DNA from: Escherichia coli
GTDB lineage: Bacteria > Pseudomonadota > Gammaproteobacteria > Enterobacterales > Enterobacteriaceae
Length of the DNA: 64,000 bases
Assembly: GCF_029227855.1 (NCBI RefSeq)
Contig: NZ_CP074356.1
Strand: one strand, 5' to 3'
The position numbers and the translations under genes are program-made. The notes under the pieces are model-generated. The model did not search any database. It saw nothing but the letters and a program-made list of their open reading frames with translations, and was not told where the DNA came from. How positions within the stretch are numbered: position 1 is the stretch's first letter; each line of letters starts with the position of its first letter. Positions 38,400 to 39,853 of the stretch are shown piece by piece.

Positions 38400-38473
38400 A
38401 AGATTTAACGCTTGATAATTATCACCATTAATAAAAACGCCATCAACATTATCGTCAATATCATTGATACTAT

Positions 38474-39853
38474 TTAATATTTTTTCCTTAGATCTCCGTT
38501 TAAATGAGATAAATTAACTGTTGCAAACTTGAGCAACTCCACATCAGAGGTAGATGGCTTCTCATCTAAGATGCCTAATTCAATCCATTCTTGGACTATT
38601 TTTTCATTATTAATTATTTCACTGTAAAACTCTGAACTTATTTTGTCCATAGTAATATAGTAATTACTTGAAACAACAAACTTCTTCTTAGTCCAAAGTT
38701 TCTTCTGGAAATTCTCAATTTGTGCCAAAAATGCAATGAGTTCCAGCGCAACAGTACGCAAACATTGAATCATGCGCAATTGTTTCTCAATATTGGCAAA
38801 CACTTCTGCATTTTGCACATTATCGAGATTCATTACTTCATTTTTAATATAAAAATCCAGTTCGTTAGTTAAAAAACCACCGAGATCTTTATGAATAAAG
38901 TAGTCTGCTGTATTACGCTGGGTATAAGTTGTAAGATGACGCTCCAACTCTGTACGTGACGGATTTTTTTCTGTTGGCGCACGTTTAGCAAGATCAACCC
39001 AATGCTGTTGAACTGTTTTATCAGCCAGAATTGTTGAAATAGCGGACTGCACTAAAGCATCCTGCTTAGTGCCCTTTTTCATGGCCTTATATTCGAAGTG
39101 AATAACTAACTCTTCTGTTTCAACGAGTTTACCGTCAACCACAGATGAAGTTTTCACCACTTCTACTGGCTTATATTCTTGTTCGTACTCATCGCCTTCT
39201 TCATCAATTTTGGTACGAACATGCGGCTCAATAAGTACAAAGCAGCGATCTAATTCATTATCTTTACGGTTATCTTTTGCTGTGTCCGCTGCGAGCAATT
39301 TAAAGCTAACTTTACGACCCTCATCTAATTTAAATGAATAATTAGCAAAGTTTTCACCGCTTTTAATGTAGTACTGGTCCTTATTTGCCCAGTGCAACAT
39401 CACTTCTTCGCCAGAATAAGGGATGGCGTAGGTATTACCTTTATAACGGCGTTTGCTGATAAAATCGCCGTTGTCATAATAACGCGAAAAGAAAGTCAGC
39501 AGATGGGAAAATACTGCATTTTCATGCTCATTTGCTCCGGATGCCATAGCCGCCAGTTGCTTTTTAAGCTCCTGTACTTTCGGGCTATCAGCAGGGTCCA
39601 CACCCGCATCAGTTGCCGCTTTTATTGTCAGTTGCAACTGATGTTCTAATTCTGATTTATTGGCATTTCCTGCATCCGCCAGCGCAGACTGGATTTTGGC
39701 CTTCAGCTTATTATCCAGATAGTCGTTAATTTCATCAGCACGTGCATTTAAAATACGATAAATACCGAAATCCAGTTCTGGTCGATCAATCTGAAAAATT
39801 TCTTTTAGCTTCTTAACTAATTCGTTGTACTTACTCATTATTTTCTCTTTCAA
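38474..39853 (-). CDS. N-terminal ~455-aa domain of unknown function, probably the 5' part of the methyltransferase gene separated by a frameshift
   Basis: ORF ends in an A6 run at 38480-38485 (coding strand) and overlaps the methyltransferase frame; first ATG at 39838 (MSKYNELV); start lies within ~20 nt of the SNF2 stop. Confidence 0.6.
   Translation of the reverse strand: MKEKIMSKYNELVKKLKEIFQIDRPELDFGIYRILNARADEINDYLDNKLKAKIQSALADAGNANKSELEHQLQLTIKAATDAGVDPADSPKVQELKKQLAAMASGANEHENAVFSHLLTFFSRYYDNGDFISKRRYKGNTYAIPYSGEEVMLHWANKDQYYIKSGENFANYSFKLDEGRKVSFKLLAADTAKDNRKDNELDRCFVLIEPHVRTKIDEEGDEYEQEYKPVEVVKTSSVVDGKLVETEELVIHFEYKAMKKGTKQDALVQSAISTILADKTVQQHWVDLAKRAPTEKNPSRTELERHLTTYTQRNTADYFIHKDLGGFLTNELDFYIKNEVMNLDNVQNAEVFANIEKQLRMIQCLRTVALELIAFLAQIENFQKKLWTKKKFVVSSNYYITMDKISSEFYSEIINNEKIVQEWIELGILDEKPSTSDVELLKFATVNLSHLNGDLRKKY

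Follow-up and report, generated by a model that had tools for sequence, protein, structure and literature searches.

The Type III restriction-modification system Eco86II has probably been inactivated in this strain of Escherichia coli by the slipped-strand loss of one A from a seven-nucleotide run (A7) within mod, its methyltransferase gene; DNA methylation, and by inference restriction, would both be off, in a manner that is revertible in principle. We studied a window of 64,000 nucleotides, meaning the whole stretch of DNA analysed (contig NZ_CP074356.1 of assembly GCF_029227855.1), which lies between nanC/nanM and the leuX island and is ≥99.9% identical to strain E24377A where the two align. 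Four steps of the argument are established by comparing sequences: the reading frame is broken, A7 is the intact state of the tract, the system is identifiable and the tract has changed length repeatedly and independently. The event itself is ordinary, a slipped-strand frameshift in the mod gene of a Type III system that is already known and characterised. What is modestly new, as judged from the genomes compared, is that inactivation in lineages of E. coli recurs at this short run and is dominated by it. The affected operon contains three head-to-tail genes on the minus strand, encoding a SNF2/DrmD-like ATPase, the split mod and res, with the following features:

39859..42750, minus strand: intact gene for a SNF2/DrmD-like helicase-like ATPase of 963 aa, the 'third gene' 5' of mod in Eco86II-type systems
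38474..39838, minus strand: 5' fragment of mod, 454 aa, comprising the conserved N-terminal domain (aa 1 to ~390) followed by the first part of the variable module
39320, minus strand: private substitution D173E in the broken mod (D in 17/17 aligned homologues)
38480..38485, minus strand: A6 homopolymer and frameshift site (A7 in the intact allele)
36717..38513, minus strand: 3' part of mod, read in the -1 frame and comprising the beta-class amino-methyltransferase module and the conserved C-terminal domain
33334..36714, minus strand: intact res, 1126 aa (PADLOC REase_III, Pfam ResIII)

The whole mod locus extends from 39838 to 36717, and its run, seen as T6 on the plus strand, is read on the coding strand as GAT CTA AGG AAA AAA TAT TAA. 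The original prediction placed the end of the N-terminal open reading frame (ORF) within this AAAAAA, and a re-reading of the coding strand agrees: the frame begins at the ATG at 39838 and closes at the TAA at 38476-38474, giving 454 aa with the C-terminal end ...LNGDLRKKY. The methyltransferase frame had been described as already open across the run; it is open from 38513, overlaps the upstream ORF by 40 nt, reads FISFKRRSKEKILNSINDIDDNVDGVFINGDNYQALNLLKKKYNSVIDCVHIDPPY and continues through to DPPY (38357-38346). That one extra A or two fewer would fuse the two frames also held: insertion of a single A in silico produced an uninterrupted Mod of 1040 aa (...LRKKILNSIND...), and removal of two would give the same join at the cost of one Lys. 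In the intact allele, the seven As are read as AGG AAA AAA ATA, which encodes R-K-K-I at codons 452-455 of Mod. An A6 alone is not unusual, with 66 six-nucleotide A/T runs in the window and 19 in the operon, and the run at 38480-38485 is meaningful because of the frame break and the comparison with A7 orthologues.

Both parts of the gene were recognizable once joined. PADLOC matched the repaired Mod end to end to its MTase_III model (2,204 bits) and Res end to end to REase_III (2,326 bits), and Pfam N6_N4_Mtase aligned to residues 489-812 of the repaired protein (6e-29). Motif IV (DPPY, 38346-38357) precedes motif I (FAGSG, 37491-37505), which is the motif order of beta-class amino-methyltransferases, and the closest solved structure to the methyltransferase module is EcoP15I Mod (4zcf_A, E = 1.7e-39). 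The N-terminal domain had no family match in Pfam, PHROG or NCBIfam. An AlphaFold2 (AF2) model of Mod was poor overall (mean pLDDT 64.6, with only 30-70 in the N-terminal domain) and confident for residues 387-494 (block means 79-93). Residue 454 lies in this model within a confidently predicted helix (block pLDDT 86-90), with the opening strand of the methyltransferase fold directly after it; translation would thus stop before that fold, and the 454-aa product lacks the catalytic motifs.

It had further been claimed that the methyltransferase part has no ATG of its own ahead of DPPY, and a scan for start codons agreed: the sole in-frame ATG, GTG or TTG between 38513 and DPPY is the TTG at 38399-38397, and none of the Shine-Dalgarno sequences GGAG, GAGG or AGGA was found in the 26 nt 5' of it (GTGATAATTATCAAGCGTTAAATCTT). 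A product started there would have 560 aa. According to the AF2 model it would begin inside the next helix after the one that holds residue 454, and the opening strand of the methyltransferase fold, with its conserved GDNYQAL segment (...GVFINGDNYQAL...), would be missing from it. These observations bear on whether the locus could be a genuine two-gene arrangement, with the N-terminal domain and the methyltransferase module made as separate subunits. The break does fall close to where the conserved N-terminal domain gives way to the variable methyltransferase module, and PGAP once named the halves as separate proteins (WP_275877442.1 and WP_275877441.1), but the 3' part has no ATG, GTG or Shine-Dalgarno sequence, the TTG product would be without that opening strand and no orthologue among those examined is split at this point. 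A promoter scan around the break found 7 sites compared with 11.4 in shuffled sequences, leaving an internal promoter unsupported. With neither a usable start nor a split orthologue, we rejected a functional split gene and assign this arrangement a next to negligible probability.

A second way in which the A6 allele might remain functional is recoding, in which a -1 ribosomal frameshift or slippage by RNA polymerase yields full-length Mod from the interrupted gene. Exactly the wild-type sequence ...LRKKILNS... would result if tRNA-Lys slipped by -1 at AAA AAA or if transcription added one A. The local context is nonetheless poor for such an event: the zero frame AGG AAA AAA TAT supplies G AAA AAA and not a full X XXY YYZ heptamer, and the 90 nt downstream of the run fold no better than shuffled sequences (z = +0.53), indicating no stimulatory structure. 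An A6 is also shorter than the runs that are known to give efficient transcriptional slippage in E. coli. Nor is the two-frame arrangement conserved, since 30 of 33 conspecific alleles and all orthologues have a single frame. Lacking heptamer, downstream structure and conservation, programmed -1 ribosomal frameshifting of the dnaX type was rejected, and we regard recoding in general as very improbable.

We compared the tract across 33 complete E. coli genomes that carry this mod allele and found A7 in 30 of them, including E24377A, NCTC86 and CUVET21-37, where among others mod is annotated as an intact site-specific DNA-methyltransferase of 1040 aa. The remaining three (~9%) are out of frame, with A6 in MS 21-1 and H22 and A8 in MB06101, and RefSeq marks mod as 'frameshifted' in each. 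An A5 tract, likewise out of frame, occurs in the draft assembly GCA_049813325.1 on a 228-kb contig. Contigs from a metagenome scan with the same flanks both had A7 (2/2), a sample too small for frequencies. A7 is therefore the intact state of the tract on the evidence of these alleles, as the original prediction had suggested a comparison of orthologues might reveal. The proposal that a single protein has been split at the run is borne out more widely: among the matches listed, full-length homologues beyond E. coli each consist of one protein, 1011-1110 aa long and in most cases 1030-1050 aa, from Klebsiella, Salmonella, Vibrio, Proteus, Shewanella, Legionella and Accumulibacter. We looked specifically for orthologues that consist of two separate proteins and found none among the homologues examined. 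Homologues of Mod outside E. coli number in the thousands.

By its sequence, the locus is the leuX-island copy of Eco86II with a disrupted mod. Eco86II was characterised from strain NCTC86, in which it is the single Type III system, by Murray et al. (2021, PLoS One; PMC8259958), and NCTC86 carries the same mod allele as the window. Res and the SNF2-like ATPase are identical to their NCTC86 counterparts over their entire lengths (1126/1126 and 963/963 residues), and the repaired Mod matches M.Eco86II at 1038 of 1040 residues, with E173D and F778V (window to NCTC86) as the differences. Strains F9792 and B4103-1 also carry this allele, and their systems EcoF9792I and EcoB4103II are listed with the GAGCC motif and predicted to be isospecific with Eco86II (PMC8259958). 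M.Eco86II forms N4-methylcytosine (m4C) at the fourth base of GAGCC, Mod alone being sufficient for methylation, and the native enzyme cleaves ~25 bp 3' of the site in an ATP-dependent reaction (PMC8259958). The system includes an extra SF2 helicase-like ATPase gene immediately 5' of mod; methylation does not require its product, which went undetected in the active fraction (PMC8259958). The window shares with Eco86II the same three-gene operon at the same chromosomal site. It differs in that its mod is interrupted, with A6 in place of A7 and a stop after residue 454 where an intact reading frame would be expected, so that m4C at GAGCC and restriction are both predicted to be absent.

The downstream gene appears complete in its motifs. 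Res starts 3 nt 3' of the mod stop and carries the SF2 helicase motifs GSGKT (36166-36180) and DEGH (35866-35877) as well as QLFGRGVR, with Pfam ResIII at residues 167-293. Near its C terminus is a PD-(D/E)xK-like motif, YPDF...IDPKG (33577-33651), which is invariant in E. coli, Salmonella, Accumulibacter and Legionella and by which the nuclease is assigned. A sequence search of the PDB with Res returned no match. The system resembles EcoP15I and EcoPI (4ZCF) in the alignment of its Mod module, in the combination of SF2 helicase and PD-(D/E)xK motifs in Res and in the gene order of mod followed by res. It departs from them in the size of Mod, which at 1040 aa has additional conserved domains at its N terminus (~400 aa) and C terminus (~130 aa), neither with a Pfam match, in the third ATPase gene, in the m4C product and in a Res without a sequence-detectable relative in the PDB.

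In every locus examined outside E. coli, mod lies directly 5' of res. The SNF2-like gene is found 5' of mod in most of these loci, as in Salmonella, Klebsiella and Accumulibacter, and is missing in Legionella. The other neighbours of the operon in the window are a 100-aa ORF and an SBD-HNH endonuclease. The SNF2-like ATPase best resembles DrmD models (663 bits with PADLOC; 666.7 bits with NCBIfam DrmD_b), and class 1 DISARM, whose DrmD SNF2 helicase supplies that best model, was considered for this reason. We rejected it, as the DrmD_b score falls below the cut-off of 950 bits and no genes for DrmA, DrmB (DUF1998) or DrmC are nearby; DISARM pairs its helicase with the methylase DrmMI and DrmA/B/C, whereas the partners here are a Type III Mod and Res. 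Two other readings of the SNF2 gene were set aside: Hma, because Mod had no match to HmaB, and BREX, because the lead from Salmonella STM4495 belongs to the unrelated StySA BREX system.

The original prediction left three causes for the break, namely a sequencing or assembly error, an inactivating mutation and slipped-strand phase variation. Recurrent real slippage is the best supported of these, with five independent changes of which one was seen in an Illumina and Oxford Nanopore (ONT) hybrid assembly; classical high-rate phase variation is held to be unlikely, and assembly error is kept as a rival. Under that rival, mod would be intact in the strain, with a true A7, and consensus calling or polishing would have removed one A. 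Homopolymers are a classic spot for errors in long-read consensus, and the run has a Dam site (GATC) 6 nt away, nearer than at any other seven-nucleotide run in the operon. Methylated motifs can bias nanopore base-calling, and the excess of events at this run could partly reflect a site-specific base-calling error. One Logan contig with A6 (L008) also carries two further 1-nt deletions and looks noisy.

Against an error in the window, only two 1-nt indels separate it from E24377A over ~62 kb of alignment, one at the mod tract and the other at a T8/T9 run at 53077, even though the window holds 22 seven-nucleotide, one eight-nucleotide and two nine-nucleotide A/T runs. So few indels across so many runs indicate a well-polished assembly. 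The genome of H22 was assembled with Unicycler from HiSeq and ONT MinION reads (PMC10508162), and with this hybrid approach a homopolymer error is an unlikely source of the A6 in that genome. The same kind of change thus appears in the H22 hybrid assembly and in a draft assembly, which implies that real alleles of this type exist. We consider a dropped base in the window unlikely, and a real mutation is the most likely reading of its A6.

Haplotypes were assigned from an alignment of the 9.4-kb operon. The window has the haplotype of CUVET21-37 and E24377A, and over 9.6 kb it differs from CUVET21-37 only in tract length and in the substitution at 39320. MB06101 (A8) has the haplotype of F9792, MS 21-1 (A6) and GCA_049813325 (A5) belong to two separate sub-branches of the NCTC86 haplotype, and H22 (A6) represents a distant lineage with 162 differences. 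On this alignment, the tract has changed length independently at least five times, on five haplotype backgrounds including that of the window. The ancestral operon had seven A/T runs of seven nucleotides, and the other six showed no length variation in the genomes aligned. The chance that all three events in complete genomes would hit this run, which had been specified in advance, is (1/7)^3, or ~0.003, a figure that counts only the three events of the unbiased complete-genome set and assumes that all runs are equally mutable. Mononucleotide runs are known indel hotspots in E. coli (PMC8510543).

Lesions other than changes in the tract are rare in the operon. A3024 has a nonsense codon in mod, and APEC37, which carries the Santai allele, has a mod frameshift caused by a +T insertion; the latter was considered as a second slipping run and rejected because the insertion falls outside any long run. 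In F9792 the SNF2-like gene is frameshifted by a C5-to-C4 change, and the methylome of this strain retains m4C at GAGCC (PMC8259958), which fits with the ATPase being dispensable for methylation.

Recurrence at one run raises the question of selection, and the run might be kept as a selected, reversible ON/OFF switch (a contingency locus) of an m4C Type III system. This reading is consistent with the confinement of all five length changes (A5, A6 and A8) to this run alone among those of equal length and with an OFF state that is safe when the system is of Type III. The locus also exists in several alleles that keep their ends and exchange the specificity module, as do known phase-variable mod genes: residues 1-390 and 940-1040 are common to at least four E. 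coli mod alleles, while their central modules are 12-48% identical. Three of the four have a seven-nucleotide A/T run within codons 446-459, which is a further point in its favour. As in a phasevarion, a simple repeat within the ORF shifts the frame, and its length differs between near-identical strains.

Several observations stand against selection. The tract, at seven nucleotides when intact and six in the window, is shorter than the criterion of at least nine that Atack et al. 2018 (PMC5909438) applied to phase-variable mononucleotide tracts. No length variation was seen among T7 runs of the other mod alleles in the rows examined, and orthologues have only an in-frame A6 at the tract position, in ordinary Lys-rich coding sequence. 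AT-rich genes of the mod type hold many A7-A8 runs elsewhere, and the separate losses of the gene in A3024 (nonsense) and APEC37 (Santai, +T) make a pattern that fits plain decay. We hold a selected switch to be unlikely. Instead, we infer from the distribution of alleles that the tract is a low-rate ON/OFF mutational hotspot, as distinct from a proven contingency locus.

The likeness to phase-variable mod genes such as modA of Haemophilus and Neisseria and modH of Helicobacter pylori is that the length of a repeat within the ORF sets the frame and varies by strain. Known genes of this kind also have several alleles with conserved ends and a variable centre, and their OFF state is tolerated, Res needing Mod. 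The tract in the window differs from theirs in being seven nucleotides when ON, in being poly-A and not poly-G or a tetranucleotide, and in governing m4C and not m6A. According to Murray et al. (PMC8259958), no phase-variable ON/OFF m4C Type III mod had been described. It is conceivable, if improbable, that poly-A at the start of the Eco86II-type methyltransferase module is a maintained ON/OFF switch and would be the first phase-variable m4C Type III system. If so, the switch would work with a tract below survey thresholds, in E. coli strains both commensal and pathogenic, and surveys with a 9-nt cut-off would overlook a class of low-rate epigenetic and defence switches. A selected switch would also imply mixed populations, which would bear on defence, DNA uptake or methylation-dependent gene expression (a phasevarion). 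Should switching prove measurable, it would be the first time that an m4C Type III methyltransferase was seen to turn ON and OFF.

For the preferred reading, inactivation by slippage, the course of events would be as follows. The normal product of mod is an N4-cytosine methyltransferase of 1040 aa with GAGCC as its target, and the coding A7 of the gene would have lost one A through slipped-strand mispairing during replication. Translation would then stop after residue 454, just before the methyltransferase fold, and the catalytic part, having no start codon of its own, would probably not be made. The cell would be expected to have no m4C at GAGCC. Type III Res relies on Mod to recognise its site and to restrict (PMC8259958, PMC4659465), and for this reason Eco86II restriction would be lost as well and the loss would not be self-toxic, with no self-cleavage of the chromosome. 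Regain of one A would be expected to restore mod.

The predicted absence of GAGCC m4C and of Eco86II restriction matters for reading the methylome of the strain and for its uptake of foreign DNA, and censuses of defence systems would count the disrupted operon as present. The locus is a modest, clear instance of a short homopolymer that dominates how a defence system is lost and perhaps regained. An exact-sequence look-up in nr found neither the predicted A8 fragment nor the repaired 1040-aa Mod of the window, the latter because of the private D173E. Both A6 fragments were present, the 454-aa one as the 'hypothetical protein' WP_275877442.1 and the 560-aa TTG-start product as WP_275877441.1, and these two records should be annotated as one frameshifted pseudogene, as has been done in MS 21-1, H22 and MB06101.

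At least four alleles of mod, the Eco86II Type III methyltransferase gene, are found in E. coli (window, 36717–39838, minus strand; loci L003, L017 and L018). Codons 1–390 and 940–1040 are near-identical across these alleles, and their central methyltransferase/specificity modules share only ~12–48% identity, a pattern that, from sequence comparison, resembles the swapping of specificity-module cassettes inside a conserved frame. In three of the four E. coli alleles, an A/T run of 7 nt lies inside codons 446–459, just ahead of the methyltransferase fold, and the sequences surrounding these runs are unrelated between alleles:

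38480–38485, minus strand, A run of the window's mod (A6 here, A7 in the intact allele)
nt 1338 of the L003 mod, T7 run
nt 1376 of the L018 mod, T7 run

The chance of such shared placement is ~0.01 by a rough, post hoc estimate, and variation in run length was seen for the window's mod allele only.

Over 9.6 kb, the sole difference besides the A run between the window and CUVET21-37, an E. coli strain with the same operon haplotype, is a substitution at position 39320, inside the broken mod. This replaces D173, an aspartate in 17 of 17 aligned homologues, with glutamate. Such a change is compatible with relaxed constraint following mod inactivation but, as a single event, proves nothing. In strain F9792 (locus L006), the SNF2-like ATPase gene of the operon is frameshifted by contraction of a C5 tract to C4 (equivalent to 40921–40925 in the window). 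F9792 is nevertheless listed as GAGCC-methylating (EcoF9792I; PMC8259958). This natural SNF2-like ATPase knockout fits a picture in which methylation does not require the ATPase.

Two plus-strand genes neighbor the operon:

~31800–32672, plus strand, phosphorothioated-DNA-binding restriction endonuclease gene (SBD-HNH, ScoMcrA-like; E24377A annotation)
32985–33287, plus strand, 100-aa ORF, convergent with res

With the SBD-HNH gene as its neighbor, the Eco86II operon lies within a small defence island next to leuX, and the same pairing is found in a Salmonella locus (L015). The 100-aa ORF matched no family in Pfam, PHROG or NCBIfam. In Salmonella and Klebsiella, a 100-aa ORF also adjoins the orthologous operon, in the same position and orientation as in the window. 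The ORF could serve as a regulator or as a fourth component.

Elsewhere, the only 1-nt indel relative to E24377A besides the mod tract is in an intergenic T run of a CP4-like island (53077–53084), which is T8 in the window and T9 in E24377A and MB06101. Within the first 32 kb, 30 of the 36 substitutions relative to E24377A crowd into the first 2.5 kb (1–2505), which suggests that the left end of the window is a recombination tract. Judging from collinearity with E24377A, the window's lineage has a disrupted type 1 fimbrial operon: at ~25680–27276, fimB through fimC are absent, and fimD, truncated at its 5' end, directly borders an IS1 element.
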